Shown: positions 25,148 to 62,672 of the stretch, piece by piece
How positions within the stretch are numbered: position 1 is the first letter of the stretch
Layout: every line of letters begins with the position of its first letter
Source of the DNA: Chrysomallon squamiferum
Lineage: Eukaryota; Animalia; Mollusca
Assembly (NCBI GenBank): GCA_012295275.1
Contig: CM022671.1
Coordinates: 19,468,001-19,532,000 of the forward strand
Reading direction: 5' to 3'
DNA: 64,000 bases
The notes under the pieces: model-generated
Seen by the model: only the letters and a program-made list of their open reading frames with translations
Databases searched by the model: none
Told to the model about the DNA's origin: nothing
Translations under genes and position numbers: made by a program

Positions 25148-25178
<31 letters not shown>

Positions 25179-36256: not shown

Positions 36257-36411
36257 AATGATGAATGCTCTTGGAACTGGAAACCTGGAGAATTTATAAG
36301 TATACAAAATTGTTTTTGTTTATTAATTTTTATTTATAACAAATTATCCTTTTCTTTCATTACTTCTTTTTTCAATTCCACAATGACCAAGTGAAAAGAA
36401 GAGTAATCAAA

Positions 36412-37099
36412 ATGATTATTTTACAGTTGCTGGTTGTGTATAGTGTGTATGGATCTAGTGCTTATCCGTCACATCGACCTATTTCTTTAGCACTTCTCCT
36501 GCCTGCTGATGAACGCCGACTGTTTTCTCTTAAAAAGGTTTCACCTGCAATTGCCAACGCTGTTGAAAAAGTCACAGCCAAAAATGGAATACTGCCGTTC
36601 AGCATCATAAAAGTAAACTATCGAGATTCAAACTGTTCCATTGCAGATGCCATGAATGAAGCCATTAACTATTACGTCAAGAAGGAAGTTGACGTATTTT
36701 TCGGCCCTTGTTGTGACTATGCAGCGGCTCCGGTAGCCCGCCAAATTCGATACTGGAGATTACCTATGGTTACACCCGGTGCTCTGGCCAGAGATTTTGC
36801 TACAAATAAAGTAGATATGTTTCCATTACTTACGAGGGTTGGTCCGAATTTCGATTCTCTCGTTGAATTTCTTGTTTCCATGCTGCACAAATTTGGCTGG
36901 TCGAAAGTTAAGTTGTTATATACACCTGATGGCCAGCAGCATGTTGTTGAACGTTTCTGTCACATTGCAACGGATGGGATTCACTATGGCTTTAGACATC
37001 AGAAAAAGATAAAGAATCTGTCACAAGACTATTTCAAATTTGAATCTGACAAAGAACTGCTGGAAATGATGGCGACAGACCTTTTAAAAGAGCATGCAG
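36412..37099 (+). CDS. Coding exon A of a natriuretic peptide receptor / receptor guanylyl cyclase-like gene: signal peptide plus N-terminal part of the ANF_receptor ligand-binding domain
   Basis: ATG at 36412 (the track's GTG start at 36391 is 7 codons upstream) leads into hydrophobic MIILQLLVVYSVYG. Family motifs follow: LALLLP, VSPAI, YRDSNC, FFGPCCDYAAAPVARQIRYW, TPGA, FPLLTRVGP, FGW, FCH. The frame stays open to GCAG|GTAGGT at 37099/37100, giving 688 nt (229 codons + 1, phase 1). Confidence 0.93.
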
Positions 37100-37849
37100 G
37101 TAGGTAATATTTTAACTTTTCATACCAAGCTTTGAAAACATAATCTTTCTCAAATTTATTTTTAAATTTTCCAATGTATATTTAAACAAATTGTGAACAA
37201 ATAAAAAAATGTTGTCATCCTTGTCTAAGAAATATACAAAAGGGATATTTATTCGACAAAATTTGCAGATTTTTATTTACGTTCATAGCAGTCTTGCTAA
37301 TGCTCATGAATTGAAGTGTAGAACATTTTGATGATGTTGCCATAATCTTTTTATATAGAAACACCAAGAAAAATGTTCAATTAAATAATCTGAAGGAACT
37401 ATACAATTCTACTTGCATTGCTTTTACTGTAATTATCTATTTAATTAAACAGTAATAATTTCGGTCAGTCAGATGCATTCGGTCAGTCTGAAGTTGTAGC
37501 TGTTCAGACATTTTGTAGATTTACATGATATATTTTTGAGTGACACTGAATAGAATACACTATGGCCGAGATCACAAACTATTCTTTCAAACCATCAATA
37601 CAAGCCAAGGTTCTCGACGTTACAACTTTATATTAAACATTTAATATGAATATTTTTGTTTGTTGTGTTGTTTGTAACGAAATACTAATGAAAACTTTAT
37701 AATGAATAATAAAAACTCGTTAGTGGAAAACCTTTGATAGACAGATGTATGTAACATGACCAGTTCAGTAACATGCCGAGATTATTAATTTCCTCTGTTG
37801 TTTTTGTTTTCTTTTTATTCTACTAATTATTCAATAAGAGTAATATGTT

Positions 37850-37912
37850 TATGTATGTATGTATGTATGTATGTATGTATGTATGTATGTATGTATGTAT
37901 GTATGTATGTAT
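37850..37912. repeat. (TATG)n microsatellite
   Basis: Directly visible. Confidence 0.95.
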
Positions 37913-38102
37913 ACATGCATGCATTGTATAGATGTTTGTTTGCATATATATGTGTGTGTATGTATATGTGTAAACTGTTTCTTGATGTTCAGCTTCTGCT
38001 ATGATGAAATTATAATAGCTAATAGTTAATGTTGTAACATGTTAAAGTGACTTTTAATTTATGTCATTTAACAAATCAACTTGCATTGCAATATGTAGAA
38101 AC

Positions 38103-39162
38103 GAATCTTGGAAAAAAGTCACAGAAAAAAGGTCACAGGAAAAAAGTCGCAGTTTTTAATTAAGAAATATATTAGCAATGAAAGATAGATTAAACACATT
38201 TTGTCAGAGTTTTTTGTTAATGATTTTTGATTTTAATGTTTGTGGTTTATCTTTGATCGAGTTGCGTATTTTGAACTGCATCTGGGTGCTCGCTCTGTAA
38301 GTCTGTTATCACAGAACCTCGACAATTACCGCTAGATCTTTTGACGCATTTCCACATCAACTTTATTTTGCGAGTTGAACATGAACCCCTCATAACAGAT
38401 TTTGTTACCACCCTCATTGCTATGAATATGCTTCTGATACTAGATCAAGCTGCAGAATATATAGGGAAACACACTGAACCTTGAACCTTGAAAAAAAATT
38501 AACGTGCTAATCAGAGCAAGCTGTTGTGAAGCACGTCTACGACAGGCACGCTTTCTGACAGGTCAGAGGGTGTGCCTGTCGTAGAAAAGAGTTTTGGGTA
38601 AGGAAAGAGAATGGGTTCTCGTTACGATTGCAGGACACAAGGGAGTGTCTAGCATATCGGATCGTAACGAACTGGTTGCAATGTTTCGTTGATGTTTTCC
38701 GCTCGTTGTTGTTTCCGGCACTTGTCTAGCTCGTCACCGGGTCCGTGTTGGTTGGGTCCTGTTTGTTTGTTCTCTTTTCGGCTGCCGTTGATGTTTCCTT
38801 GTTCTTTCTGGCTGCTTCCCTCTGGTCCAACAATTCCAAACCTTTTTTATTATTATTATTATTTTCATTTTTTTAAACACATTTTAACCTGGGACGTTTT
38901 ATAAATTATTTACCATAGGAAGCCCTTAGTTTAAACCTATCCTAATCAGTAAGCTAGACCCAAGCATCACAACTGCACAATATAAAGCCGCTTTCCTTAC
39001 TCTAGCCTAAGTGACCTAATCAGTAAGCTTGACAATTACCCCATGCATACTATGATTCCACTTTCATTACTCTACAAAGCCATACATTTTGTTATATAAA
39101 AATTGTGACTTTTTTCTGTGACTTTTTTCAGTGACTTTTTCTGTGATTTTTTTCCAGCCACC
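38103..39162 (-). mobile_element. Non-autonomous Mutator/Phantom-like element with tandem-repeat TIRs, a FLYWCH remnant and an ~8-bp TSD
   Basis: The left end ggaaaaaagtcacagaaaaaaggtcacaggaaaaaagtcgca mirrors the right end tgtgacttttttctgtgacttttttcagtgactttttctgtgattttttttcc. Flanks are gtagaaac (38095-38102) and atagaaac (39163-39170). Minus strand ~38430-38270 gives IHSNEGGNKICYEGFMF, a frameshift, then LMWKCVKRSSGNCRGSVITDL (FLYWCH zinc-finger-like). Confidence 0.82.
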
Positions 39163-39900
39163 ATAGAAACACACTTATACAAATATAATAAAAAAGGGGC
39201 TCCATTGACACTAACGACCTAAGCAATCGTGCTCAAATAGATTTCAAACATTTAAAATACTTCAGTTTCCTCACATAAACACTTTTCAGCTTCCTCACAT
39301 AATCACTTTTCAGCTTCTATCCCACTTATCATTATTTTTCCACGGATTTTTATATATTTCATCTTTGACAATTCCCCCAACATTATTATCGTCTTGTCCA
39401 AATGACCAGACAGCTACTTCCCCAATGGTTATCTTTTGTAATTCTTAATTTTTGAAATCTATCATTGTTGTTCCCAATACGTTTTTCAGTTTCTCACTTA
39501 CATTGTAATGAATGGCTTCCTTTCAATTGTATTCCTTTCAAACTACAGGATGATAGATGTCAAATACACAGAATCAACTCTTTTGAGTACAAGCACACAT
39601 AGCAATAGAAAACATACAAATACCTCGATCAGTGAAAAAATAGGCTTGCAGCGTGTGCTGTTTTATGTTTTCTCAGTTATTGATGTGCAAATCTTTATTC
39701 ACTGGAAATTTGAAGTTTTCTTCTAAAATCCCTGTTGAATCCGCATGGAATGTTATTTTGTTTTGCTGCACTTAATAAGCGCGGCTGTTTTGTTTTCGTT
39801 TTTTTTTTTTTATAGTTAAAATAACAATTTATTTATTGCACTTTTATAATAAATAAATAAAGTAATTATTTATATATTAATGAACTGAAGATGAATTAAG

Positions 39901-39931
<31 letters not shown>

Positions 39932-40655
39932 AAATAAAACAACAACATAATAATAAAAAATAAAAACAACAACCAGCAATCATACATTATTTTTCAACAT
40001 TACAAAGGTATTTCAATCTGTTTAAAGATGATAATTCTGTATTCTGGAGCCCTAAGATACTGAGATGTAAACTTTTGGTTAACAAATTGATAGGAATCAT
40101 TAAGTAAGAGAACCGTTTTAGACGGACATATAAATGGTTGTATTATTCCTATAACTTGAAGATTAATATAAAAAATATATATATTGTTCTTAATCGGTGC
40201 ACTGTTAATATCATTATTTTTTAATAACAATAGTTAAAAATCTTAGAGAACTCAATTTTTTATATTACCGATTGGCATGGGATAGGGGTCTACGGACAAA
40301 CATACAAGCGTAAACGTTACTCTTTTTTAATATAGGATTCTAAGAAATATTCAAGCTGACTTTTATTTTATTTATGACGATTCCATACAGTATAAAGGCC
40401 GCTAGATTGCTTAACTACTAGCTTGGGAATGATAAAGTAATTTCTCCCCATAAGCTGTTATTACGTCTTTATAGACGAGTTTTAAACGTACATACAGCAA
40501 TAAATCGTTATTTTTTTCCTTCTGATTAATTCATAAAACTGTCACAAACCACTTCATACACCTATTCTGTTACATATTTTAAAAATTATACCACAATTAC
40601 ATAATATTATTTGTACGGCAGTTGAACATAAAACCTGATTTGCTAACGCAAATAC

Positions 40656-41015
40656 TTTATATCACTATCGGTATGCGCAGTTCTATATGCCAGGTACGGT
40701 CATAAAAGTAATTTATATCCTTATCGTCTATGCGTGATTTCAAATACTAGAGCCGGTCATAATTTAATTCTACAAACATTCCTGTCGTGTATGCACAATT
40801 TTATATGCTAGGGACGGCCATGTTTGTAAAGCAAACAACAGTCATTTATATCCCTATCGTGTAAATTCGGTCTTATATGCCAGACAATATCATAATGTTA
40901 GTTATACAAAGAACAATAACGTATACGCCCCTGTCGAGCGTATTATATTTTATACACTATATATAGGCTCGGTCATAATTTTAGACAAACATCAGTAATT
41001 TATGGTCCCATTGTC
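40656..41015. repeat. Degenerate tandem array: ~50-bp core with variable linkers, about 5-6 copies
   Basis: The core is approximately tttatatccctatcgtgtatgc...ttatatgccagggacggtcataa. Confidence 0.65.
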
Positions 41016-42613
41016 TTCAAAGTCCATTACTTCATCCGCTACACGACACGGATATCAAACGTCTGGATAAGTGCTTACATTCAGTCATGTGAAGTTGATC
41101 TTTTAAATAATCCCATGCTTAATACGCAGTGAATATGGTGGATTTCCTGTTGCAGATTTAAAAAAAGAATAAATCTCTGACAACTAATAAACGGTAACAT
41201 AACTGTGTTCAGATCTGGTTTAACTAAAAGATAATTCATTCATTAATCTAGAAAATTAACGATGACGTAATACGTGCCTTTAACTTAGAATTAAACATAA
41301 ATAACTAATGCTTAAAGACTTACAATATTTAATTTTATGTGCCTCTCGCTTCATGGTTTTTCACCTTAACTTTGAGAATTAATATTTTCAAATATAATTC
41401 TTTAAATACGACACTGCTACAAAGTTTAAATAAGTGATTCTTGAGTTATCTTCATGAACCTGCATTTTCGAATAATTTTATGATTCATTCAAAATGAAGT
41501 TTACATCGCACGATATCTAACAAAGTGAACCACAATAAAAAAATAATTATATCGCTCATCGCTTTCGAATGATATTTGTTTGTTTCGTGTTATTGAAGGC
41601 ATATGTCGCCAGACGATAGCACCTTACTCACCAGCTGGTGTTTTGTTCAAGGTGGATCTCTTCTCGCGTGTGACACGTGTTAGATTATTACTTCCCAATG
41701 TGTACGACCCCTCTGTGACCAATCACATTCTGTATTCATGAAATGCAATGACATACACGTATAGATAAATGCATGTCCTGTTTGAAAAAGAATATAGCAG
41801 TTCAATAACAGTAAACAAATTGAAGTGATTATATATACATACATATATATTTATAAATAATACATTAGAGATTCATACCGACAATAATTTTAGTTAATAA
41901 GTCATACTTACGTTTTCTCTTTAATACACGGAAACAAAACGTCCTAAATAATACATTATTTAGTAATACGTTTGTTTATCGTAAAGAGATGTTATATATG
42001 ATGAACTGCATAAAAATGTGTACTGAGAGATTAATGAAAATAAATGAAGCATTATTACTTCTAAACGGCAACACCTTATTCTAGAAAACCAATTTTCATT
42101 GATAAAAGTACTGTTAGGAACTAATAACTATGTCGATTAAGCTCTCTGATATAATATCTAACAATAATGGGAAGAGATATAACCCATAGAGAACCGTGAC
42201 GGATCTTGTAATTGATCTTGATGGTGAAATGGCTAAGTCATTGTCTTTATGACTGTTACATTTTAACATACTGGATCACTTCCTGATACATGAAAAAAAA
42301 AAACATACTAAAAATATTATATTTCTTTTGGAAGATGTAAAACCACTAAATTTTTTTCTCTTATTAATTAATCTTCACGAATTACTATACTGAATATATT
42401 TTGCATTGTAAATCGTAGGACATAAGTACATGAACATTAACTACGGGTAAAACAGCCTTTTCCCAAATTGATTCATAAAATGATGACAGAAGAGAATTCA
42501 GATTTATAGGAAGGAAGATATCAATAAAATTCCCGAACCTAGCATTTGCAGGGATATTTCATAGACAAGAACCGACATTGCCATTATATATATTTACACA
42601 GTAGTATTAGTAT

Positions 42614-42649
<36 letters not shown>

Positions 42650-42912
42650 AAGTAGTAGTAGTAGTAGTAGTAGAAGCGAAGGCAGTGGTTGTGGTTGATT
42701 GTTGAAGTAATCAACATTACAAAAGAAAATAACCCATCTGCTTGGTTAAACATTATAAACATGTTTTTCAAAGTAATTAAAAAGTAACATCAGTTTGATG
42801 TATGACTGCCTTTATAGAATTGTTCCCAAGAGAGGTGTTTTCCAGGAAGCAGCAGAAACAGAACTCGGGTTATTTGCGTAGTTTAACAGCACTCTATATA
42901 TGCATGTAGATG

Positions 42913-42955
<43 letters not shown>

Positions 42956-45900
42956 CAAATAGATAGAGAGAAATATAGATAATATATACAAATATACACA
43001 AACATACACAAAATACATATACATATGCATATATACACACATACATTCAATCACATACATACATATCTGGTTCATACATACACAGAGACCGAGAGAGAGA
43101 GAGATATAAACAAAGTGACAGAGACAGATTACATGTAATGACGTATAAGGAAAGGAGATCGATGTAATATTTATATATGTTTAGATAGAATGCTCCCCAT
43201 CCTATAAATGATTCACAATTTTGTTATGTCCAGCTCTAGACTGTATATATTAAAGGGCAATGTTGTGTCTAAGAAAATGCACTTTTTTCCAAGATCTCAT
43301 GTTGTTAATCGATTAGTGTAGCCCATAAAGTGTCGTCATGTCGTCAGCTGGTTTTCTTTCTCAAACTTTTTCATTAAATAATTATACGTTTGATACCAGC
43401 CAAGTGCTAATTTAAAAGTCATTCATTCTTTCAATGAAATCTGCTGAGAGGGTCGTAATTAAATAATAAGTATCGCCGCTTTCACTGGTTTAATCATATA
43501 TATTTTTTTTTTGGCTTTATTGTTGTTTTCTCATTCCGATTTAATTCTGTTGCAATTAATTTTTTTCTCATCTTTTTTCCATCTTTTTTTCTAAAATGAT
43601 CCATCTATAGTTTGTATTAGAGGAAAAAGTATTCATTTTCAATTATTCTGATAATAAAAAAGAAACCTTCTGCTAGCTAAACCGATTTTCTTTCGACAAT
43701 AAATAGAATGAATGATTAATGTTTAATTAGACTTGACATTAAATCTAAATAAATGGGAAATCATATGATTTTTTATAATGTTAATTCTGAAACGCTCTTA
43801 AAAGATATGTTTTAGCACAGTTTTATCCAACAAATGCCTTTTATACATCAACTGGAGGCTTCTCTTTATCACTGGGGGTCAATGAGGAAGCTTTATTACG
43901 ATATATATTGTTCTTCAACAGAGTGGGCGTTACCCAAAGTTCTTGATTCAGTGTAATAGTGGTGGTAATATTAGCTGTAGCAGTAGTAATAGCAAGGTAT
44001 CGCTAGAAGTAGCAGCAGCAGCAGCAGTAGTAGTTGCTACTGCAGCAGTTATAGCAGTAGCAGTAGTAGTAATAGTAGTGGTAGTAATGCATTTTCTAGT
44101 CATACTTGTTTGAAAGTTAAAATAATCCGGTCATAGGAAAGTCAGTGAACAAAGCATGAATTACACAGATGATTCCAGACACGTACACAAAAAAAAAAAA
44201 AAGGTGGCATCTACACTAATCAAATTATCTCTGGCAGACACGTATTTATAGAAAACTTTGAGAGCCATTATCTCATTTTATCTGAGCTCAGTTTTCCCAG
44301 CCACTTAGGACATTAATGTCTTTTGCAATAACTTTTACAACTAAGAAATACTGACGGGTGCACAAATTGTTAAAAACATATTCAGTAAACAATGACAAAA
44401 GTCAATGATTAATTCATATTATTTCTGTATTGTTTGTGTTCGTTTAAGCTGTTATCTGGATAGGTTTCTTGTCTAATGTACTGTCCTGTAGTTCGTCTAC
44501 ATAAGCTAGGTCTTCCGAGTGGGTAACATAATAAACACGTTATCGGAGACTGTCGGTCAGCAGTTGGAAAGAATAGATTATTTCCAGAGAAGATCAAGAA
44601 ATGTTAACTATTGTTATTTTACGACGTGGCATCAATCAGTTTTTGGCCTTTTAACTTCTTTTATGATTGTTTTGTCTAAAGGAAAAGGACGGGACAAAAA
44701 ATATAATAAAATAAAAATAATAAAATAATAAAAATAAAATAAATAATAAAAATCAGAATAAAAATAAAAATAAAAATAAATAATAATAATAAAAATAAAA
44801 ATAAAAATAAAAATAAAAATAAAAATGATAATAATAATAAATTAAAGTAAAAGTAATAAGAAGAAAAGTATATATAATAATAGTGCCCGATTTCTAAAAT
44901 ACATTCTGCTGATAACGCAAGTTCTGAAACAGTATAAATTCCTCGATATCATTAAATCTTTATTCTTTTTATATTGAGTCAGGTTTAGCTTTACTAAGCT
45001 TCATGATATCTGAAACTATGCAAATTTAATCAAATGATAATATGAATATCACACTATCCACATTGACTTATTAATAGATTTCATTTCTTTGATACATCTT
45101 TCATGTTATATTATTATAACTCTTTTTAAGAAGATTTGTTCGTCCATGTTAGTGTATTCTTAATTTTGAATATTAAATTCTAAAAAATAAATCTAATGCA
45201 GCGCGTGTGTTATTTTAAACCATATCAGACTCTAGTTCAATACTGGTTCTTAAATACATCACAAATAATTGCAGCTTTGTGATATAAACATTTTTATATT
45301 CTGAAATGATCAAAATTTTGCAAGAAACTCTTCATTACACGAGTATCATGAAAACACATCAAAAGAATATATTTCTGATTCACCATATGAAAACTTTAAA
45401 AATTTAAATTTTTACAAACTTCAGTTTCTGATATAATTTGAATTCTACAAGATGACCTCAATTCCTTTTTAATAGAAGAGTATCCCGAAAAATATCCCAA
45501 CAATTTCCTGATGTTACGAATTTTATGTTTCCTAATTTTGTCAGTGAAGCGAAAACCTCCGGGTTATCTGATTTCAATGAATATAATGAGACCATTTCAG
45601 TACCCATGAGACTGTTCTGATTCATTGCTCAGTAGAAGAAATGAAATGCATGCGTCCATCCTAAATTAGACGTATACTGGGAATATTGTACGACACTGCT
45701 TGACAAGTGGTCATACAATTACAAGGACTTTAGGGAAATAAACTGATTAACATTCTTATACCGTCATGACTTAAAGTTATCAAAATGATTTCTTTGCTTG
45801 CATACATATAATTACAGGCTCTTCCTAAAAGCAATAACAGTATCATAACGTGTTGAAAACTAAATATGACACAGGTGATGCATTGTCGAAGCACTATTCC

Positions 45901-46016
45901 ATAAAGGACTATTCCTGATTAGTGTGTAAATAGAATTTTAACAGCTCCTGTTTAACACAAGTGGCTAACACTTTTCGTAATTGGAAATGTATCACGTTAA
46001 ATTATCTGGAACGCAA

Positions 46017-46042
46017 ACATCTCGCTAGGTGGTAACTCGTGA
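46017..46042 (+). promoter_or_regulatory. Candidate upstream element of exon B (TCTCGCTA at -175; CTCF-like TCGCTAGGTGGTAA)
   Basis: Shares the 8-mer with exon A. About 11/14 match to the CTCF core, read as CC(A/G)SYAGRKGGCRS. Confidence 0.35.
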
Positions 46043-46194
46043 TGTTCACAGTCTGAATCCCATGAACACGTGTTCGAATAATCTGAGGTCAGATGGTTCA
46101 GCAGTATCACCGACTTCATTATAATTGAAATCTAGAATTTCTGTTTTATTATTAATTTTAATTACTGTGAAGTGTAGATATAAAATACACCGTC

Positions 46195-46894
46195 ATGGCC
46201 ACACATATGCAACCATTTAATCCTGTTTCTGTACTATTTTTATGGATTATTGTTTGTATAAAAGGAGACAAAACTAAGGTATCTGTAGCGGTTCTTCTGC
46301 CATCGGGTAGTGAGTTTTTGTTTTCAGCTGAAATAGTTTCTCCTGCAATTGAAATAGCGTTTGAAAAAGTCAGAAGACCGGATGGAATTTTGCATAATAC
46401 AAATATCACACTGGAATATCGAGATTCGAAATGTTTACCTGGAATTGCCACAAATGAAGGGATCACTCTTTACATAGAAAACAAGTTTGATGTGATGCTT
46501 GGCCCTTGCTGTGACTACGCCGTGGCTCCTATTGCCAGACAGTTAAAATACTGGAATTTGCCGATTATTACGGCCGGAGCCATGGCTATGGATTTTATAT
46601 CCAAAAATTCAGAATTCCCTCTACTGACAAGGACTGGACCATCTATTAATTCCCTTGTTGAATATCTCATTGTGATGTTCAAAACTTTCAAGTGGCATAA
46701 AATAAAACTATTGTACAATCCAATGCAGCATACCGATGCTGGGGTAAGCTTTTGTCATATTGCTGTGGATGGTATGCACTACGGGTTAAGAGTGCAGACG
46801 CAGATAAAGAACTTTTTACCGGAATATTACAAATTCAGTAACGATTCCGAGATTCTAGACAGAATGAAGCAGGAAGTGGGTAATGAACATGCAG
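46195..46894 (+). CDS. Coding exon B, paralog of exon A: signal peptide plus N-terminal ANF_receptor domain
   Basis: gtcATGG start, hydrophobic VSVLFLWIIVCIKG, then VAVLLP, VSPAI, YRDSKC, MLGPCCDYAVAPIARQLKYW, TAGA, FPLLTRTGP, FKW, FCH. Ends at the strong donor GCAG|GTAAGC at 46894/46895, giving 700 nt (233 codons + 1, phase 1), the same homologous position as exon A. Confidence 0.93.
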
Positions 46895-47267
46895 GTAAGC
46901 TATTTACAGAAACATAAATATACAAAAACTATCCAAATATATTTTTGTAGTCAACATGATGGTTAGCTATTTAAAGAACCATAAATACACAACAGAGATT
47001 TTGCAAATACACTACTAATTTACTCATATTTACTCAAACTATCATTATACAAATAAACAACATTTTTCCAAATACACTACTGTTTTACAATCATGAAAAG
47101 TATCCAAGTATAATCTAATATAGAAGTTCACATAGCTACAGTTTTCTTTCCACTGTGTTAAGAGATTCGTAATATTTTGTGTACGTAATACCTAGCTTAG
47201 TTCTGAAGATGCCATGTGGGTTTTACCGGAAGATTTTACGACAGAATTTTGTTCGGAAAAAATCAAT

Positions 47268-47377
<110 letters not shown>

Positions 47378-47464
47378 TTACAAACATGTATCTATGTGTG
47401 TTTATATTTTAATTACTAAAAGTATCTCTAATAATATAAAATTAGAAACTTCTTCTTCTTCTTC

Positions 47465-47504
<40 letters not shown>

Positions 47505-49107
47505 GTTCTCAATGTTATTAGACCTCTAAATATTATTTGTCACGTCAAAGTAACGATACTGGCAGATGTGACAGCTGTTAGTATCCAGTATCCGGCATGA
47601 ACGATAAATCATAGTATTTGTGAGTCATCACCAGTTTGAAACAAAAATTTACACAATTTAAACAGACAGGGTAAACACTTTTGTATGACATTTTTACTGA
47701 TATGTTTTTCTGAGTGCACTACCAAATCTGAAAGTGTACTCTCCTCAGTTCCGGATCCCTTTCCCGATCCGTTTCCTGTTGGGAAACTGACATGGCGGAA
47801 CGTAATTGAAGCATAAATACTTCTCTTTTTTTCACAGAAAAACTATAATTTTTAGATTTTTCTGACCACTTAGTATCGCTAATGAGATGGGACAAAGCTG
47901 GACAAAATTGAAGGAGTTGTAAATATCGTTTTAAATAAATAATATGCTCTTTTATTTTAGTTCTATCCTGAGAAGTAGATTTTTACGTGTCATTAATTTG
48001 AAGAAATAATACAAATTATTTTTTTCGCTGTTTTAATAATACTGATGATTTAGAAGTGGTATTAGTTTCAGTAGTAGCAGTGGTAGAGTTCTGAAGAAAT
48101 TGCAATGGTGATTATAGTCAAAGAAGCAGCATTAGTAGCAACAGATGAAACCATAAGGTTTAGAAAGAGTAAAAGTAGTATTAGTATTAGTAGTAGTAGT
48201 AGTAGCAGCAGCAGCCGTAGTAGTAAGGAGCAATAGCAGTATTAATTATAGTGGTAGTAACAGCAATAGTAGTAGTAATATACAAGTTTTAATAGTAGTA
48301 ATAGTAGTTGTAGTTGTTATAGTTTTAGTAGGAGTATATAATTTTATTATTTAGGAATTCGTCTATTTAGCATTTATTTGTTGCATTTAATGGTGAAGTA
48401 TTTCATCGTGGAGAATACATGTACGCCGAAGTTATTTCTGTTAACTAATAACGCAGAATTACTAAATGAAATAGCCATTAAATTCGGTGTTGCCTATCTT
48501 TTTATCTCACCGACCCATTTAAAGATTCCACAAAAATCCGGAGGCTTCTAGTGAAAACATTGTTGTTATATATTTTTTAAATTTATTATATGAAGTGTTT
48601 TTGATTAATAATGATTATGGCACTGTATAAAGAGTATATATAAAAAAAGTTATAATAATAAAACGCTTACAGGCAAATACGTTTAAGGGTGGACTTAATG
48701 TTTTGTTTTGTTTTTTGTTTAATTTGGACTGATGATTTGTAAGCTTTAATCTTAAATCTCTTTTTTCTTCCAATTTCAGTATGATTCGCTGCTTAATTAG
48801 AAGTGCATTAGCACGGCTAAATCCAGCTTCATTTATATATGAAGTAGGGAATGGTAAAATAAAAGGTGGTTGTATATTTTGGGATATCTGGTATTAATTA
48901 TTTCATTTCTCCAGAATAATTTAGTAGTCTTATTTTTTACAGTACTTTTGCTTCGAGATCAAGAGACATGTCTATAAGTTCAACCATTTTTCTTTTTAAA
49001 CAATAAACAAATTGTTGGAAATTTTAAATATTTATTTATTTTTCAGGCTTTATTTTTTTTAATTTTTAATATTAAATTTCTCTAAACCTCCTAAAGACAA
49101 ATTTATC

Positions 49108-49200
49108 TCTCATCGACCCCCTAACCACCCTTTAGTTCCCGTCGACTCCCTAAGAGCAGCCATCGATTACTGTGGGTCGATACGGACAACTGTAGACAGT
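49108..49200. mobile_element. Possible DNA-transposon (hAT-like) subterminal fragment
   Basis: Cluster of related motifs: tcgacccc, gtcgactccc, gggtcgata. Confidence 0.25.
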
Positions 49201-50343
49201 TTGTTGCGTGCCATGTGTTAGAACAGTACCTAACAAGAGCGACCACTGCAACAGTCTAACTTCGTTCTATATGTTTTGTTATTTCTATCAGATGATCGGA
49301 GAAGTTCCTGTTAAATCAAGCTAAAGTTATACTCATTCGCATGACCAGCTACTGTTTCGAGGAACGAAGACACTCATATGCATTTTAAATTCTTCTGTTT
49401 CACTCATTTGTGTACTGTAACAAACTTCATGAAATAATATCTCGACTGTAAAAACACATTATCTCATAAACATTGCTTACGAAGTATTTATGGTTTCCCG
49501 ATAGTTATGTGCAGGCTTTTAGGAGAATAATTTAATTATAACATTGTGTACTAAAGTTAAAGCGGGGGTAACGGAACCGTTATCTAGCCACCGAGATGTA
49601 TTCGAAATCATACTTTTTACAGTTTACTGCCGAAAGAGTCCGAAAGACAGATTAATTAATAGACTATGACACTGAGCTCTATTGTAAATTTATTTTTTGT
49701 ATATATATATTTCATATATCAGAGTTTTATATCAAGAAGGCAATTTGTTGTCCTTCTTGCACGTTTCAGAAGACTGTTCATTAATAACGACAAAGCAATT
49801 TAGTTTTTTTTTTTTATGAAAACGGACAACAACGACGACAGCAGTTATTGATATTTTTAAGAATTCCTTCTAGTGCAGAAGCCATAAAATTGATGTTTGA
49901 AGCACTCATAGCATATTAGTTTGTTAATGTCTTTTTCCCTTACAGCAAACAGTTTTCTTCTGTTGCAACTTAATAATCTGATTGTAACATTGCTTTATGC
50001 CTGTTTTACTGGAGTGATAAACATTTCTTGGTGAAAGTTATTAAAATTTTACTTTAAAAAAAATAACAAATTACAACCTACTTATTATAGAAAATAAAAA
50101 CGAATGCATATATTGGTGTATGTAATCTGCATGGTTATGTGTGTGTGTGTGTGTAAGTGACAGATGAAAAATATATTGGTTAGGAATATATAAGATAATG
50201 TATATTTATGACAATGTATATGTGTCTGCTTCATGATATTTGTGCTGGTACGTATAATATTATATATATATATGTATGTGTTGGTGTATATGTAAGTGTA
50301 TGTATACACACACACATACGGACATATATATAAACATGTGTAA

Positions 50344-50401
<58 letters not shown>

Positions 50402-53357
50402 GTACGTACGTATGTATGTATAATAAAAAATAAGCTAAAATAAGCTTTTGCTCGACAAAACTCATCAGAAATGTATCAACATTAGATCCTGGTCAAGTCA
50501 TTAGAATGTGTTTACTGAGTCAACGTGTACAAACAAACATACTGTTATTCGTTAATTACTATATATAATTAATGTATAGCTGAAAGTAATTCTCATCATC
50601 ACTAATATTCATTACTTAATTACAAAGCTATTCTGGTGAAGGCCACATTTAAGAATTCATTAACTATGCTCTTTATGTCTGACCAATTAGTTCATACAGA
50701 ATAGAACCGACCATATTCAATATCATTATAAAACTATCAAATACCCAGAGAAAACCCATTAAATCTTTCACTGATAATAATACAATTATTTGCCTCAGAT
50801 AGCCAACTCTTTCATCTATATATAAAAACGTATATTTCAAGAAGGGTGTAGGGAATATAAACTGAAACTCTCAGGAATCGTCTTTTTTTTCTCGCTGGAA
50901 CTGAAAAACAAAAATAAAAGAAATAAAATATATATATGGCAAATAAATAATAATATTATACCATCATGCTAAATGGCATAAAAATAAATAAATAAATAAA
51001 TAAAGTAAAATGAATAATCAAATAAATACCATAATAAATAATAAACAAACAAACATATAAATCTAAAAGAGAATAATATCCATGTAATTCAGCATAACAG
51101 TTTAAGAAATCACTCAGCAGTAATATTTACAATACTAACGAAAGACAAAATAAATAAAACAAAATACTTTTTATGTAAACATGCAGTTACAAATATTATA
51201 CAAAACAGTTTCAGAAATCCTTTCAGAAACACAAATAATAGCATTAAATAAACACATAAATAAACAAACACTCAAACAAACAGTCAAACAAACAAACAAA
51301 TAAATACAGAAACAAAAAATCATGATTTACTGAATGGATTACTGAAACACGTTGTTGGATACTGGAAAATTTAAGAGACAATTCCTACAAACAAACAAAT
51401 ACTAGAAAAGAAAAACCAAATGGTAATTCCTTTAATGGACTGGAAAAATTTAATGGTAAGTAACTATTAGGTTGTTAGAAGATTAACCGAGGATTCCTTA
51501 CGCCAGTCTTTAAAAATTCCACCCAAGAGTGAAACTGGTGCCATTCCTGTATCTAAGAATCGTAATACCAATATCTTAAATACTGCGCACACGAAGCTTG
51601 TCTCCGCTTTCTACTGACCATAACAAACAAATAATTGCACTGCATCCGAACTCCAAGTGACATGAAATGATCATTCCTTTAATTGTCCTGACCATCTGAT
51701 GTGTGAAAACAACACTCAGTCTTTCAACAGCGACACGCAACTTTCCGCTTAAATTCTTCAAAAACATGATGAGTAAAGTTGGCAGGTTAATTCTGGCCTT
51801 TTCTTGTTGTCTGATAATAGGTGAAACGAGTCGAACTAATTTGTGCTGGCAAAACACAGTTAGGTCGATACTTCCCATTAACAATCTTTTCCACGCGTCT
51901 AAGACTGTGAGGCATTGTTCTAATTTTCACGGCTAATTTGAATTGAGTGTAATAAGAATTATTCCTTTTAAACTTGATCAGGACCCAAAGGATCAAGCAA
52001 GGTCACACTACCGTGGTAGAGAACAAGCTTATGCGTGAATGATCACAGATTCGATATTGCTCGTTGGATTTGTATTAGATTTAAATAAATGGAACTTATC
52101 CATTCCGCACCCAGTCATATGTATTATACTAAATTAAGCCATAACTTACGTTTCTAAACCATATCATAGCAAACGTGAAATGTATCAAATTACATAATGA
52201 CATGCCACGCCACTTCATAGCGTACACACAGGCACACCAAACGAATGCTATGCATGCAATATAGTGTCATATAATGTCATTCTATTCCATACCGTGCCGG
52301 ATCATGTCATTAAAGAATTTAATAATAAGAGAGAAAATGAAAAAAGAGTTATAAAATCAATGCGTACGTTTCTTGAGCAGTAAACAGATTATATTGAAGG
52401 AAACACTAACAGTAAACACAGAACATATGTGTATCATACTTTCACATAGCGTGTTAAATACATGTCTTATGAAGAAACAAATCGTTTCACATAGCGTTTT
52501 AAATACATGTCAGATTACTGAGTTTACGGGACTCGGTGTATATTTAAAATACCATAGATTATCATAATGTGTAATAGTGCTTTTTTCTTTCTTGGCTTTT
52601 TGTTTGTTAAGATTTTTTGTTTAATTTTGCATTCGCGAAATTAAACATAATCATCGAAGTTATGGAATGTATTCAAATAAACATTTCGTGGAGCACATAA
52701 CTTTTCGTGACTTAACCATAGAGAAATAAAGAAATACAATCGTTTAAAATGTCCTCTTTTAAATCAGAGAATTTTCTGTGTATTTCACGTAATTAAATGA
52801 TGTAACATTTTGGTACGACGGAAGAAATACTAGGAACAGAAATAACAAATTACTATGCCAGATTACAGAAACTACATGTGATCATGTTAATTAACATATC
52901 GTACTTTTGCTACTACGCAAACATTAAATTTTATTATTCTCATTGTTTTTAAACGAACAATACATTTTAAAAAGGTTTCTTTACTGCTTCTACTGCTTTG
53001 TACTGCAAACTCAGGCTAATCAGAATCAAACGCCGTTTACTGTGGGAAAATTATATTTTCATTTATACGTGATACTGTGATATACGACAACTAAAGCTGA
53101 CGCATAATGGTCTGAATGATTTTTATGAAAAAAGAGCGTTGTGCATTTTATGATTCAGATTTTATAGTCAGGTTCGTGACGTTTCCAGTACCTCAGAGAA
53201 CATTAAACTGTCACCTCTGTAATATACTTTGACTTTTCTTTCATTTGTAATGCGCAAAGCATTATTTAGATGATGGGTTAATCATATCGCGTGGTATATG
53301 TATAGGCTCAGGTTTAGACCCAGTAATATTTTGTTACCTTAATCGGGGTTGTCCAGC

Positions 53358-53382
53358 GATGTTGATGATGATGATGATGATG

Positions 53383-53433
<51 letters not shown>
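53358..53433. repeat. (GAT)n(TAT)n microsatellite
   Basis: Directly visible. Confidence 0.95.
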
Positions 53434-53714
53434 TTAAACTGGTGATTATCATTCATCATGTTCCACTTAAAGATTTTGCATTTTCTGTCTTTAAAGATAC
53501 AGTTTTAATTATTATCATTCGTCGAAAATTATCACCCGAAGTTTCACTTATTTTTTATAATAATACTCAAATCCGCTGACGTCGACGTTAAATATTTTTG
53601 ATAAGTAAATAACATTAAATGTAGATCAGAGTATTTACACGTCAGGTATCTGTTGAGGATTCCTGCCTTTTATAGATTAATCTGATGAACTCATATAGCT
53701 AATGATTATTCTTG

Positions 53715-53830
53715 ACACTGGTAAATGGGTGCTGTGAAAAATAGTCTACTTGGGTTCAGAAGAGAGGTTTGATCCATTCGCCCCACGTGCTTCATGGCAG
53801 TGTCCAACTACACTGAGATAAAGGCGGCTT
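53715..53830 (-). mobile_element. Degenerate tRNA-derived SINE head
   Basis: The reverse complement shows tatctcagtgtag (A-box-like), ggatcaaacc (B-box-like) and gactattttt. Confidence 0.35.
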
Positions 53831-54649
53831 CTCGATACTAGCTGAAATAAAATAAATTAACTGATGTCAAATGATACGTGCTGTTAACAAGTATCTAACG
53901 TGAGAAGATTTCCCTCAACACCTGAACATAGAAATGAGCTGGCAGTAACTTGCCACACTGTTACACGGAACACTTGAAATATCCCACACACAATTTTATT
54001 GACAGGCGCAGTTTTGTCTGTCGTTTGTAAGACACGACAATAAAAACATCGTTCAGTTCTTTGATACTGAATTATTACACGTTTCTTTGTTCTCAGTCAG
54101 AATGAAATAAATGATTGTTTTGATAACAGCACCAGAAGATGAAAGAAAACACGTCTTTGAAGAGGAAATGTAGAAATGCAAGTCAACCGAACACGTTTTC
54201 ATAATAAATTAATTTTATACGTTAAAGTGTTTATTTCTTCCCTGACTTCTCATTCTTCCAACCTTTGTAAATATTTCTTTTTATCTTTTCCGTATACTTA
54301 CTGATTATCATGTCTTTCTTGTAATATTCGACAGATTATCAGTACTTTATAATTTTACTGGGATTGTCTTTTTTGTTTTCCTTTTTTTTTCTCTTTTTTT
54401 TCACATTAATAAAGTAGAAAACTGTTTTGAGGAATTATTCGTCAATACAAAAGAAATACATACTTTTCTGTTTTGTTCACTAAGGAATTACTACAATCAA
54501 AGACGGACTTAAAAGAATAAAGTTTTCTGTTTTGTGTAATTTGTATCACTGCGTATATTAGGAATAATAAGCATGAAAAAAATAACACTTATAATTAAAA
54601 TAATGCCCACCTCAGAGATATATTTCAGTTTTTATATAGACTAATAAAT

Positions 54650-54653
<4 letters not shown>

Positions 54654-54730
<77 letters not shown>
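54654..54730. repeat. (AG)n microsatellite
   Basis: Directly visible. Confidence 0.98.
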
Positions 54731-54734
<4 letters not shown>

Positions 54735-55217
54735 CCACTAAATTATATTAACAATTCATTTAATACGTACAAATTGCTAGTTATCTAAAATTAACATTGC
54801 ACCTTTAATAACTGGTCCCATTCCGATATTTAATTCATCTCTTTATCTTATTCTGTTGTCTGTTCGACGTTAAGCGTTTGTTATTTTTGCAATTCAGTTT
54901 CATTAGCGGTAAGGAGTCTTTTGATAGACAAGAAAATATTTATTATGATTAAACACGTAGTGGGCGTACTTAAACAAATATCCATCGGCGAATTATCATG
55001 CCAGGCTTAAATTAATTAAAGAATGGACTATTTATAGGCTTCCCTCAAATTACACTACAAAATGAACAAATTAAAAGTCATAATCATTTCACAGTATAAA
55101 TTGTGTTTTAAGGGAAATAACTCTCGTTTCATAATTATTACTATAACTACTTGGGTTATCGTTCTTCGTTCATTATGACCAAAGATTCCCATCTGGTTGT
55201 TTTTGACATTATCTTCC

Positions 55218-55235
55218 TCATCATCATCATCATTA

Positions 55236-55279
<44 letters not shown>

Positions 55280-55289
55280 GTTATTGTTA

Positions 55290-55333
<44 letters not shown>

Positions 55334-55350
55334 GTTATTATTATTATTAT
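55218..55350. repeat. (CAT)n/(TAT)n microsatellite
   Basis: Directly visible; produces the poly-Ile ORF artefact. Confidence 0.95.
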
Positions 55351-57905
55351 TTTAATTTTTTATGTATTTTATATGCCGAGAAGATGTTTGTGCATTAAAG
55401 AGACACTTTACTGTCATATTTATTCTTATAATTAAAAAAAAATATTAAAACAATTTTTATATGATTTTATATTAATTTTTTTTTTATCGTATTCGTCTAA
55501 TAATTTTAAAATTAGAATTAACGCTTATGTTACCATCTGAGTATTTTATTTGAAGGGAGATTTTAAAAATAATTAATAACCTCTGAGATTAGAAGATATG
55601 TCCTTCGTTATTCAGTTGTTAAGCTTTGAAGTCATTAAGTCCACATAAATACTTCACTTCCAAAGGTTTCACAAGACCTTTCTTTGGCATCGTTTATACT
55701 GTATTCATCGGAGAAAAGTGGAATAAAGTTTTTAATGTAAAAGCTAGTGCGGAAATAAAGGTCAAGTTTTACCCTGTAGATTCACCTGCGAAGATTATCC
55801 AAATACTTAAACGTTAATTGACATGGACGTTTGAAAGATGATGCAAGACAAACTAGAGCGGCATTGTTCATGTTGTGATAACAAACAGCCATGTGTCGTT
55901 TTTAATGACTCTTCTCTAATGCGGGGAACTAAAAGCATATTCTTCTGTCAAAGCCAATTTAATTTGTTATTCCAAAACGAGAAAGATCGAGTCTCTATTA
56001 TTAGGATTGCCAATTAGCGGAGATGCGTGATGAAGCACTCGGGTTCAGCTTTGTTAGAGCTGGAATCACCAAGGAAGAACGATGTTGTCTTTGTTTTGTT
56101 TCCAGTCATTTATTATTGCACTCAGTAATTGCACTTCGATGGTTTGGCTCATATAAGTAACTTTCCTTTGTTATTTGTTAAAGTGCGTAACTGGAAATAT
56201 TTGAAGAAAAATAATGATGAGGTTGTTGCTGTTTTGGTAAATGAATAAATGTACATAATATGACTTCGGTGTAATATTTATGTTCGTTTCCTTGAACTAT
56301 TGATTGTTAATTTGGTTAGCGTGTCCTTCATGTGAGCTAGTGTTTAAAATAAAGAAATACATGCACACAAATTTGTGTGTATGTGAACTTTATCATACAA
56401 CGCATATATCTAATGACACTGTTTTGAAAAACGACAAAAGCTTTTGTGACTGGTATCGCACATTTCTCAGTGTCATTAACTGTGCTTTATCAAACAGAGG
56501 AAACGGGTTGATATTTGACTAGAACTACCGATATTTTAGTGGTGTCATTTCTTTAAAAATTCTGACGCTTATCACGTTATGAAATTTTTCATATATATAT
56601 TTCAAAATAGACATATGAGAAACCTAAAACACGTGACTTGAACCAATTTTCTAGAAAAATGTTAACACTCACACCACTGTGAAATTATTCTCCAAACAAC
56701 GCAGATGATAATTTTATTGATTAGGCCTAAATTATTTGAAAACAGTTTTATGTCCCATCATGATGTTAATGTTAGATTTTCTCCATGGTTAGCAGTTCCA
56801 GGAAAAAAAAAAAAACCTCTAAAATATCGTTGCTGTTTAATACGGTAATAGATTTTTTACACGGATTCCGTGAAGGAAACTCAGATTTTTGGCTTGTGTT
56901 GATCATTTTATCTTTGGCTGTGTCGAATATTTGTTCTAACTTCTCAGTTAGACGAAATCTTTCAGTGAAACAAAGCGAAATGTTCGTTCAGCGTAATGTA
57001 CTCGTACTGTGTTTTCCAATTCAGAGCTCTTTAGTTTGAATATCCAAGCAACAAAAAAATATAAATAAATAAATAAATAAGAAGTACGTAAGTAACTAAG
57101 TAAGTAGGCAAGTATGTAGGCAAGTAAGTAAGTAAGTAAATAAATATTGAATGTTATTAAATGCTAAACATAAAAGTCTATAATGTCTAGTGTTACCCTT
57201 ATCACTTAACAGCTAGACATATTCCATGCAGTGGAAAGTACATATTGCAGATGCTACAGTTAGAGAACACTGCTGAAACTGCCACTAGCACAATTATAGG
57301 TTCCTCTGGAGGACCCCTGCAGTCTGTGGAAAACGACTTCTCTTCATTTATTAAGTCCAAATATGAAAGAAGATGATTTATATAGTTACTACAGTAGTGT
57401 TTATAATTCAAGGAATGTTAAAACCATTGTTTTTATTATATTATATTTTATTATATTATATTTATTTATTTTAATTTAATTTAATTTTGTTTTGGTAAGA
57501 AAAAACTGCCATAAAATTGTCATGCTAAATAAAACAACAACAATAAAACAATATAATAAAAACATAAATAAATAAATAAATAAATAAATAAAAATAAACA
57601 TTAAAAAAAAAAACATGTTTTAAAATGTTTTATGAGTCTAGACCCAGCGTCATTATTATGTTTTCCCATAGTGATTTTTTTGTCAACATTATTTGGCCCA
57701 CATTAACGATACCTTAAAAACGTATTTCTTGTTGTTCAGGCATAATCCACTCGGATGTAATAAGAGCATGAAATCGTATAAATGTCCATTTCACCACGTC
57801 CATTTAAAACATGTAAATCACCAATCAAACATTTTATCATGTCTAGTACAAATAAATGAATTAAGAGTCTTTGTGGAAGGACACATCCATTTATTTTAGC
57901 AAAAG

Positions 57906-58121
57906 CTGTTAACATACATCTATTATTAAACTGTGTGATATTAACGTGTTCGACAATGTGTCTGGCATTAACGTGTGTGTCTGTTATCAACATATGTGTC
58001 CTTTCTTGACGTGTGTGCCTTGTTAATAAGTATTTCTGTTATTAAGGTATGCTGGTATTAATATGTGTGTTAGTTATTAACGTGTGTTTGTTATTAACAT
58101 GTGCATCTGTTATTAACGTGT
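57906..58121. repeat. Degenerate ~19-bp minisatellite (approximately TATTAACGTGTGTGTCTGT)
   Basis: Repeated tattaacgtgtg / tattaacatgtg units. Confidence 0.65.
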
Positions 58122-58127
58122 AAAATG

Positions 58128-58212
58128 AATCTCAGTGGTTAAATATATGACTGAAGCTTGATGAGTCGCTGGATCGATCCTTGTCGATGACAGTTTATCA
58201 GAAATATTTCTA
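58128..58212 (+). mobile_element. Degenerate tRNA-derived SINE head
   Basis: ctcagtggttaaa (A-box-like) followed by ggatcgatcc (B-box-like). Confidence 0.35.
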
Positions 58213-60299
58213 AACTGGAAATGTATAAAGAAAAATCAAAAATCACACTTTTTCAAATGGATACATGTTCTAAATTTCTTTAAATTATCTAACGTTTCAC
58301 TTTCAGTATCAGACGTTTCAAAAGAAATCAATGTATTCCAAAGATGTAGTTAAACAAAACTAATTTTTATTTTACTCTTGCCAACAAGCGCTGTGTTATA
58401 TACACTTTATCAAAGACAGTAAAGATTTTAGCACTATTTTTTGATATACTAGCATCTGTCGTTGAAATAGATTTTGTATTGAAGCATATATTCGAGATTT
58501 ATCGTTACTTCATTGAAATATATTCCGACCGCTAAATCTTAACAAAAACAATACCCATTCAATGTTAATAACTATCTGGAAAATACTGAGTAATAGACGA
58601 CGACAAGTAGCCATATAAATCCTGTTCCGAAGCCTCAGCAATATCAGCATGTAACAGATTAAGTTTGTGTCGAGAAACTTTGTAAATCACACCGAGTGGA
58701 TATATTAATATATTATAACTGTTTTCTATTCCGATTTTCGCACCATTTGTATAGATGATATAAATTTACGTTCAAGGCACCTTGTTATGAATACATGGAT
58801 ATTAAAGAGAATATATTTTAAAATATTATAGGATAAATATACTTGTATATTTAATACAGATTTGTTACTTTCTTGATTCCATTTAATATGATTTTTTTTT
58901 TTTTTTTTTGTATTCTTCTTCGACTTTGTATTTTTATAATTACTATTTTATATACACATTTGAAAAGTAATATTATAACAAAATATTTATTCCTAAATAC
59001 AGACAGACAGACAGACGTACACACATATATATACATACATGCTTATACATACAGACGCAGGCACATATAATTAGAAAGACATTTTTATTTAAAACATATC
59101 GTGTCAGAGTTGTTTCAATCAAAATAATAGCCTATAATGATATATGTGCTTCGATAATTCGTTACAAAATGATGGAAATTCGATCTAACAACATAAATCA
59201 TCATTCACTATTATATTCATTGAAAATAACACAAAAGGTTTTAAACAATACATTATTCTATCAGTAATTTTGTCACAAAACATCATTTTCTCTATTAAAA
59301 CCTGAGTCACAAGTATCATTATCCTTTTACAGTGTATAATAACATATGTGGTTTCCTGACGTTTCCATCATTTTTCGTAACAGATTTTCAGCATTGCTCT
59401 TTCGTTCCAAATACTGCGTCTTTAATTATTTCGCAGTGAGAAACGCAACAGGATTTTGGCGACTAACCTATTAAGTGGTAGAAGAGAGAAGACGTTAAGA
59501 GCCCTTTTTCATTTAGCAGTGGTTAAAGTTTCTGGTCAATGATGAAAGATCGAGAGCGCAAATCACGCTTCCAGATTAAGAATTTTTTTCTGAGATCTTA
59601 TCGCTTCCTGTATTCCATTCGATTCCTCGTTTTATCACGGGATAGAACATAAAGTAGCACATGATGAAATCTTTTTGAAAAAACAGGAAAGACAGGAAAA
59701 AAGAAGAGAAAAACTTTTGCATGATCCTAATTTTTAACGGGCCCTAATCTAAAAAAAAAAAAAAAAAAAGAAGAAAAAGAAAAGAAAAGAAAGAAAAAGA
59801 AATGCCAATAGAAAAAACGAAGAAAGAAAGAAAGATGATTTTTAAGAAAGTAAAAAGAAAAGCCCCAGTATATTAGAAATATTTTTAAAATATATGTAAT
59901 ATTATAGACCAGTATATATGCCTTGGTGACTTGTAGTTTTAAAAAAATTAATATTGTCACAAAATATCTGAGTACCGCGATATCTGACATAAAAATAAAC
60001 TTCGCGAAAATCGGTCTGAATTTTTAAGTCAATCCTGTTCGTTTTTAATTAAGATTGTGCAGCAAAAAAAAAAGAAGAAATAAAACAACTTCGAAATATG
60101 TAGAATATATACTTATTATTTTCTGTATCACCTTAATTACTTTAATAGTTTTTCTTATTGTCTGGCAGCTAGAGAAAATTTTGAATACCTCCCATCAGTC
60201 ATATGCTTATTTCTCATACAGTTTATAACAACACATCTCGGTCGCGAGATCGTTCTTGAGCGAGGGTATGCTGGAAGGAGGAATAAATAAAAACGTGTA

Positions 60300-60463
60300 G
60301 ATAGGTTTCGGACCCGTCACAGTGAATATAGATTCCTTTTGTACTGTCTTTGGTTGATGAAAATATAGTAACCCTAGACTGAATCAAAACTTTTAAAGGG
60401 GGCCATCGGTCATATTAAGTTGCTCATAAGGGGTCGCGGTATGAAAAAGGTTGATAACCAGTG
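60300..60463 (-). mobile_element. hAT-like non-autonomous element end
   Basis: The reverse complement begins cactggttatcaacctttttcataccgcgacccc, resembling the CAGTGGTTCTCAACC hAT terminus. The other end was not found. Confidence 0.5.
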
Positions 60464-60770
60464 GCCTACAGCATCTAAGAACTGAAGGTGTGTCTTGACT
60501 CTCTGTTGCAATTGATGCAGATTGTTGTTGGTGCGTGGCTCATTGTCTCACGGTGGTACAAGAGCGGCAGAGGGAATTGAGCATCATCATCAATCCAGTT
60601 GACGACCATGCAGTCAATGAACTCTTGGGCACGAGGAACATTTGGTTTCGAGTCAACGGTTTCAATCTATGCGTCCTGAATTTTGTCTTGTGATAGTAGA
60701 GCTAGTTCGGCAACCTTGCGGATCCACTGTCAAAACATGTCTCCTTCAAAGTCCTTCTCCTATTTAAAAG
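60464..60770 (-). mobile_element. MULE transposase fragment, internally deleted
   Basis: The minus strand reads QWIRKVAELALLSQDKIQDA*IETVDSKPNVPRAQEFIDCMVVNWIDDDAQFPLPLLYHRET, frameshift, PRTNNNL...FLDAVG. RTNN is the motif preceding the third catalytic acidic residue in MULE transposases. Confidence 0.75.
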
Positions 60771-61305: not shown

Positions 61306-61355
<50 letters not shown>

Positions 61356-61842: not shown

Positions 61843-61964
<122 letters not shown>

Positions 61965-62594: not shown

Positions 62595-62595
<1 letters not shown>

Positions 62596-62654
<59 letters not shown>

Positions 62655-62672
62655 TATATATATATATATATA
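62596..62672. repeat. (TAA)n(TA)n microsatellite
   Basis: Directly visible. Confidence 0.95.

Follow-up and report, generated by a model that had tools for sequence, protein, structure and literature searches.

The window analysed here is a 64-kb stretch (64,000 nt) of the genome of the mollusc Chrysomallon squamiferum (assembly GCA_012295275.1, contig CM022671.1, positions 19,468,001 to 19,532,000 of the forward strand). It is AT-rich (∼31% GC), abounds in microsatellites, and contains two tandem paralogous exons, A and B, which lie on the same strand 9.1 kb apart (Table 1) and are candidate first coding exons of a natriuretic peptide receptor (NPR)-type receptor guanylyl cyclase gene. Each encodes a hydrophobic leader followed by the N-terminal half of an ANF_receptor domain; the leaders were judged to be signal peptides by eye from the hydrophobic N-termini. 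In both exons the match to the Pfam profile ANF_receptor (PF01094) begins at profile position 2 (E 9e-21 for A and 2e-21 for B), and both end in CATGCAG/GTA (exon/intron), a phase-1 donor. A first-pass annotation made from the sequence alone had described two same-strand exons here, each with its own ATG, an N-terminal ANF_receptor segment and a phase-1 end, and the coordinates, Pfam matches and donors are in full agreement with it. Exon A contains an S...GPCC chloride-site motif and Cys183; exon B has Cys187 at the position of the cross-exon disulfide discussed below.

BLASTP aligns the products of A and B with 102 identities in 206 positions and one gap; the first-pass hand alignment, also with one indel, gave 103/206. 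At the nucleotide level, the two regions resemble each other in the exons alone (63% over 524 nt). Differences at codon positions 1, 2 and 3 number 81, 66 and 129 (221 codons), and the Nei–Gojobori (NG86) estimates are 0.45 nonsynonymous (dN) and 1.66 synonymous (dS, near saturation) substitutions per site, giving dN/dS ∼0.27. The claim that both exons are under purifying selection is borne out by these values. A and B are rejected as sisters by the approximately unbiased (AU) test (p 0.008); for this and the other AU tests below, the groups were chosen after inspection of quick trees. Because the exons are not sisters and show no likeness outside the coding part, we conclude that the duplication is old and that both copies have stayed intact. 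A recent segmental duplication was considered and is ruled out by the exon-only similarity, the dS of ∼1.7 and the rejection of A and B as sisters. Compared with A, an independent DNA contig shows two differences, one silent and one H159Q, too few to gauge selection.

Expression evidence comes from Logan contigs of small RNA runs that were placed on exon A. Two contigs lie on it, at 36392–36665 and 36864–37062 (depth 2.8 and 6.7), with uncovered flanks; A is partly covered in two of the three RNA runs of one study, the third being without cover. The contig from run X1 starts exactly at 36392, after an AG. We note that this AG, with its pyrimidine tract, lies 20 nt 5′ of the ATG of A and immediately before the first base of the contig, and that B is preceded by a comparable AT-rich tract and a TAG ending at 46177. 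There is thus a weak hint that A is possibly the first coding exon behind one or more non-coding exons, and the same may hold for B, in which case neither would be a true first exon. DNA depth is level (mostly 32–98) in the unique parts from A to ∼44,700.

Search of the window for constant exons

The remainder of an NPR-type receptor, here called the constant region, has no counterpart in the window. When 28 proteins were compared with the window by tblastn and the rows of A, B and seven full-length homologues were inspected, only A and B matched. A set of 733 overlapping 30-aa pieces from nine gastropod constant regions reached at best 25.8 bits, at poly-Ile microsatellites; 41 of 42 oyster control pieces of 20 aa and 50 of 56 of 15 aa scored above this value. 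A hidden Markov model (HMM) of the constant region gave a best domain E of 0.046. By these searches no exon 2 and no transmembrane, kinase-homology or cyclase exon is present anywhere in the 64 kb, and the earlier statement that none lies in 37100–46194 survives all three of them. Since there is no constant exon between or after the two exons, the donor of A must pass B, and the donor of B must span more than 17 kb to a constant region beyond the window. Apart from A and B, a module profile likewise found no module in the window, intact or decayed; the best remaining domain had an E of 0.16.

None of 131 other open reading frames (ORFs) of at least 62 aa reached the Pfam cut-off, and an Rfam scan of the window gave no match. 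Three ORFs of 116–214 aa without a Pfam match, at 12695–13336 (−), 24800–25234 (+) and 51579–51926 (−), resemble decayed transposon pieces by eye. A high-copy repeat at ∼37916–39211 has a summed DNA depth of up to ∼58,000, against ∼58 in unique parts, and also occurs in RNA contigs; inside it, 38250–38444 (−) gives a weak FLYWCH match (E 0.002, below the cut-off).

Table 1. Coordinates of the exons and associated features in the window
Feature	Position	Strand	Description or basis
Variable coding exon A	36412..37099	+	688 coding nt = 229 codons + 1 nt; ATG at 36412
Variable coding exon B	46195..46894	+	700 nt = 233 codons + 1 nt; ATG at 46195
Phase-1 splice donor of A, GTAGGT	37100..37105	+	Sequence
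Phase-1 splice donor of B, GTAAGC	46895..46900	+	Sequence
Possible acceptor (pyrimidine tract + AG) for upstream non-coding exon(s) of A	36345..36391	+	Sequence and RNA contig start; weak hint
Interval from A to B, likely intronic in A transcripts	37100..46194	+	Microsatellites and high-copy repeat; no constant exon
Downstream stretch, likely intron	46895..64000	+	Neither exon 2 nor a further module over at least 17 kb

Module switching in gene models of related species

The constant extracellular part was used as a query, and 120 of the 432 matches were examined; further isoforms were taken from protein clusters, among the members listed (at most 15 per cluster). Homologues were divided at the V-V-V-L-C-A motif, which lies just after the A/B donor position. 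Two or more proteins could be compared in 31 species among the matches listed, and in 21 of these (11 bivalves, six gastropods, two nemerteans, a horseshoe crab and a spider) different N-terminal modules sit on one constant region. The modules are ∼230 aa long and 22–49% identical in the pairs computed; the constant region of ∼840 aa is 99.5–100% identical over more than 800 aa. In these relatives the isoforms switch exactly at the A/B donor position. The residue at the junction is V or I depending on the module and all later residues are identical, which fits a codon split in phase 1. The number of distinct modules per gene is at least seven in Mytilus trossulus, at least six in M. edulis and in Mercenaria, and at least five in Magallana angulata; outside the bivalves it is at least three in Haliotis, Patella vulgata and Biomphalaria and at least two in Lineus and Argiope. 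Two intron-free Logan contig proteins (P0022 and P0031) join modules of both classes described below to constant regions that share 99.6% and 98.0% identity, respectively, with that of M. gigas.

At the genomic level, a phase-1 GT follows the module in all 10 related loci that reach its end, several of which may be from one species. Among 34 metagenome loci of 1–12.6 kb, the module is a single exon in seven, lies in separated pieces in 11 and is partial in 16; none holds two modules or a constant exon, the loci being too short to test for an array. The intron-split modules are those of loci L008, L009, L015, L016, L022–L024, L026, L029, L030 and L034, and L008, L015 and L030 reach the module end and keep the phase-1 donor. 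Two proteins that might be read as carrying two modules were set aside: a Mytilus coruscus GenBank prediction with two modules in tandem (P0187) was taken as a predictor artefact, and the N-terminus of Mercenaria X1 is a long leader instead. Several mollusc RefSeq proteins named "atrial natriuretic peptide receptor 3-like" (P0017, P0024, P0025, P0027, P0028 and P0142) are single modules, most of which read through the donor. Instead of clearance receptors, these probably represent variable exons that were mis-split in annotation, and the same is likely of many short "NPR3-like" annotations in molluscs.

In an alignment with NPR-A, the junction corresponds to mature V209, with Cys164 before it and Cys213 after it. 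The residues of NPR-A that contact atrial natriuretic peptide and those of its dimer interface presumably lie before residue 209 (no list of the contact residues was found in the literature searched), and the first exon of the vertebrate NPR genes presumably ends at the same place as A and B. Cys164–Cys213 is named as a disulfide of NPR-A (PMC4049422) and S(x)nGPxC as the chloride-site motif (PMC5225109). Equivalents of Cys60, Cys86 and Cys164 are present in A and B, so that the chloride site and the Cys60–Cys86 pair fall inside the variable exon. The Cys164 and Cys213 equivalents are 91% and 100% conserved, and the Cys213 partner, which lies in the constant region, is invariant in 33 homologues. 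C183 of A and C187 of B are predicted to pair across the junction with the Cys of V-V-V-L-C-A in a disulfide of the Cys164–Cys213 type; a module alone would then be half a fold with one unpaired Cys. The mean frequency of the top residue is 0.46 in the module, 0.84 in the constant half of the same domain and 0.88 in the cyclase, the latter two figures being inflated by rows that share a constant region. Transmembrane, kinase-homology and cyclase domains are found in seven of nine long homologues, and an abalone isoform matches NPR-A with 1054 bits and the same domain order over the full length. The AlphaFold model of the full abalone isoform is poor (mean predicted local distance difference test score, pLDDT, 50.6; predicted template modelling score, pTM, 0.29) and shows no more than a helix on one side of the junction and a strand on the other.

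The closest relatives of the two exons differ in annotation. A is best matched by the X2 module of an abalone gene (291 bits, 66%; range 66–68% identical), which in all four species concerned has three modules sharing a single constant region. In Patella caerulea the matching modules are annotated under the successive locus tags 14811, 14810 and 14809, with the constant region belonging to 14809. The best match of B is a stand-alone exon product of Gigantopelta (55–56% identical), which is grouped with B at a Shimodaira–Hasegawa-like approximate likelihood ratio test (SH-aLRT) value of 99. This product and a full-length Gigantopelta gene are on equal-sized contigs, and the constant region of the latter is 83% identical to that of the abalone gene. 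The best matches of the window are thus with gastropods. The order A, B, further modules and then the constant region is the likely layout.

Modules fall into two classes at SH-aLRT 100 in quick trees that have no outgroup and a long branch for the spider G-class module, and in which orthology of the constant region is assumed. One class ends in Arg (R class); the other, which includes A and B, mostly ends in G-x-x-Y/F-A/G/S (G class). Both occur on single genes in oysters, mussels, a scallop, clams, abalone, a limpet, Lineus and the spider Argiope. Monophyly is rejected by the AU test for the Argiope pair (p 0.0002), for all arthropod modules (p 0.008) and for the Lineus pair (p 0.002). These trees suggest that the variable–constant design likely predates the split of molluscs and arthropods. 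In the horseshoe crab Tachypleus, P0124/P0125 and P0129/P0130 represent two genes, each with two R-class modules from independent variable-exon duplications in chelicerates. More speculatively, the NPR-type gene of the protostome ancestor might have carried an R-class and a G-class exon ahead of a single constant region, with an expansion to at least seven in molluscs, and the receptor dimers might provide a combinatorial, cell-specific receptor code; we offer this as a tentative idea. If it is true, isoforms expressed together would associate by way of their identical tails; as the ligand pocket of the dimer is formed between its two modules, n modules would yield n(n+1)/2 pockets (28 for seven), and a combinatorial code for peptides would feed one cyclic GMP (cGMP) output.

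Proposed isoform structure and its alternatives

Taken together, we consider it highly probable that A and B are alternative first coding exons of a gene for an NPR-type receptor guanylyl cyclase, both being spliced to the same exon 2, which would lie beyond the window. The case is built mainly on the relatives, and the junction in this species is inferred from them. The variable–constant interpretation of the first-pass annotation is supported, the design being present in the gene models of 21 of 31 related species; a junction of the kind it postulated for A and B is seen only in those relatives. In the proposed arrangement, the phase-1 donor of either A or B would be joined to the common exon 2, the last G of the donor exon and two bases of exon 2 together encoding the first Val of V-V-V-L-C-A. 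From exon 2 onwards, the gene would encode what remains of the extracellular domain, followed by the transmembrane helix, the kinase-homology domain and the cyclase. The choice between isoforms would most likely be made by separate promoters, one for each module and possibly acting through non-coding exons, such that different cells would express different modules. The chloride site lies in the module, as would, if NPR-A is a guide, the greater part of the dimer interface and of the ligand pocket. We therefore infer that modules change ligand specificity; exchange of the module would likely alter the extracellular signal that drives the same cGMP output.

Several observations weigh against this explanation. 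The expression evidence covers A, the exon on which the RNA contigs were placed. Neither a junction from A nor a loose end at donor 37099 is listed for these contigs, which stop 37 nt before the donor; this is not evidence of absence. No DNA contig bridges A to B, and a mis-join in the assembly is possible. The isoforms of the relatives are automatic RefSeq models whose read support is not visible, and in the other 10 of the 31 species each constant region has a single module or the proteins resisted division at the motif, the sample being incomplete. The close relatives of B are all annotated as stand-alone proteins of 270–283 aa, none of them joined to a constant region. Whole-gene paralogs also exist in gastropods: abalone constant regions are 77–82% alike, and several have their own module pairs. 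In Octopus, the two module classes are on separate genes (P0077/P0287 and P0223/P0285) whose constant regions are 68% alike. As to function, the ligands of these receptors in protostomes are mostly unidentified (PMC6878697), and the Caenorhabditis elegans isoforms gcy-28.c and gcy-28.d had the same effect in a hypoxia assay when overexpressed (PMC9249223), from which it follows that modules may matter more for the site of expression than for the ligand.

One alternative is a Dscam-like arrangement, in which A and B would be mutually exclusive internal cassettes behind one upstream promoter and a non-coding exon, with the same protein products. The acceptor-like tracts described above, with an RNA contig beginning at the base after the AG in the case of A, speak for it, as does the presence of the abalone A-type protein under at least four RefSeq accessions in three species, which suggests several forms of the 5′ untranslated region. 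However, an ATG and a leader are present in each exon, separate promoters drive gcy-28.c and.d, the contig edge is that of a single contig of depth 2.8, and upstream non-coding exons would fit private promoters as well. We therefore regard cassette splicing from a single promoter as rather unlikely.

The stand-alone annotations of B-type relatives raise the question of whether one or both exons are orphans, either producing a short secreted half-domain (a decoy or binding protein) by intron read-through or having lost splicing to the constant region. Both frames do remain open across the donor and meet a stop within a few codons, an AATAAA lies 100–160 nt after each donor, many relatives, including all B-type ones, are annotated as stand-alone "NPR3-like" proteins of 210–280 aa, and a short product is annotated for P. 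caerulea 14809. Yet AATAAA is frequent at ∼30% GC, the place and phase of the donor are conserved, and a half-fold module would leave the Cys164-type residue unpaired. The stand-alone annotations, moreover, have spliced orthologues in sister species (P. caerulea 14810, for example, is 97% identical to P. vulgata X1), and we judge orphan status to be very improbable. A derivation of A and B from two NPR-like genes, whole-gene duplicates that a rearrangement or an assembly join placed side by side and that each have a constant region elsewhere, could draw on the gastropod whole-gene paralogs, some of which share one chromosome, on the split of classes over two Octopus genes and on the unbridged interval. 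The private exons of A would then have to lie beyond B, at a distance of at least 27 kb, and B would sit nested in between on the same strand; the DNA depth is level in the unique parts from A to ∼44,700, and the tandem design is directly visible in relatives. Two separate genes are in our view scarcely to be expected here. The occurrence of both variable-exon arrays and whole-gene paralogs in gastropods indicates that the two modes of duplication coexist. The two Octopus genes are on equal-sized contigs, and their state is possibly the result of whole-gene duplication followed by reciprocal loss of modules.

If A and B are alternative first coding exons as proposed, one gene would make several receptors for different ligands, and the diversity of receptor guanylyl cyclases in invertebrates would be several-fold greater than gene counts indicate. 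A panel of isoforms with identical tails and different pockets would make de-orphanisation testable with one cGMP assay.

Known variable–constant systems

Vertebrate NPR-A (NPR1), NPR-B and NPR-C resemble the receptor considered here in domain order, full-length similarity, chloride-site motif and disulfide pattern. NPR-A differs in being the product of one 22-exon gene, for which the excerpt of PMC4049422 mentions no variable exons. Natriuretic peptides are reported to be restricted to vertebrates and the pocket not to be conserved in protostomes, which makes binding of such peptides by this receptor unlikely (PMC6878697). The excerpts of PMC1435932, PMC5225109, PMC12923798 and PMC4935464 hold nothing further on exon structure.

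A partial precedent within the family is C. elegans gcy-28, a receptor guanylyl cyclase with different 5′ coding ends and a common 3′ end, whose.c and.d isoforms have separate, cell-specific promoters (PMC9249223, PMC3842693). One abalone isoform is named "gcy-28-like" in RefSeq; no nematode protein is among the matches listed, and the likeness is drawn from isoform descriptions. The full-text literature searched, which lacks most subscription papers, holds no description of arrays of variable exons in NPR-type genes of molluscs or arthropods. The first-pass view that the design had not been described for NPR or receptor guanylyl cyclase genes can thus be kept for molluscs and arthropods and has to be qualified for the nematode. 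In the gene models of the relatives, a UGT1/protocadherin-like design in an NPR-type receptor gene is real, with the isoforms already in RefSeq as automatic models.

The chelicerate shortened Dscam (sDscam) genes are similar in encoding an invertebrate surface receptor through alternative promoters and tandem 5′ cassettes; they differ in having immunoglobulin domains, a role in adhesion and self-recognition, ∼50–100 isoforms and no enzyme output. UGT1A, GCNT2 and the clustered protocadherins join tandem paralogous exons for a signal peptide and N-terminal recognition part to common constant exons, with lineage-specific gain and loss of variable exons and duplicated clusters (PMC1885805). The window has the corresponding features of variable first exons, namely tandem paralogs, a start and leader in each with donors of the same phase, and no private constant exons between them. 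In contrast to the UGT1/protocadherin type, the gene here is that of an invertebrate receptor guanylyl cyclase in which one Venus-flytrap domain is split, with a predicted disulfide across the junction. Two to seven modules are found, compared with a dozen or more in those systems, and the two module classes are apparently conserved across phyla. With the NPR-type gene, the few known variable–constant genes would come to include a receptor of the peptide-hormone type.

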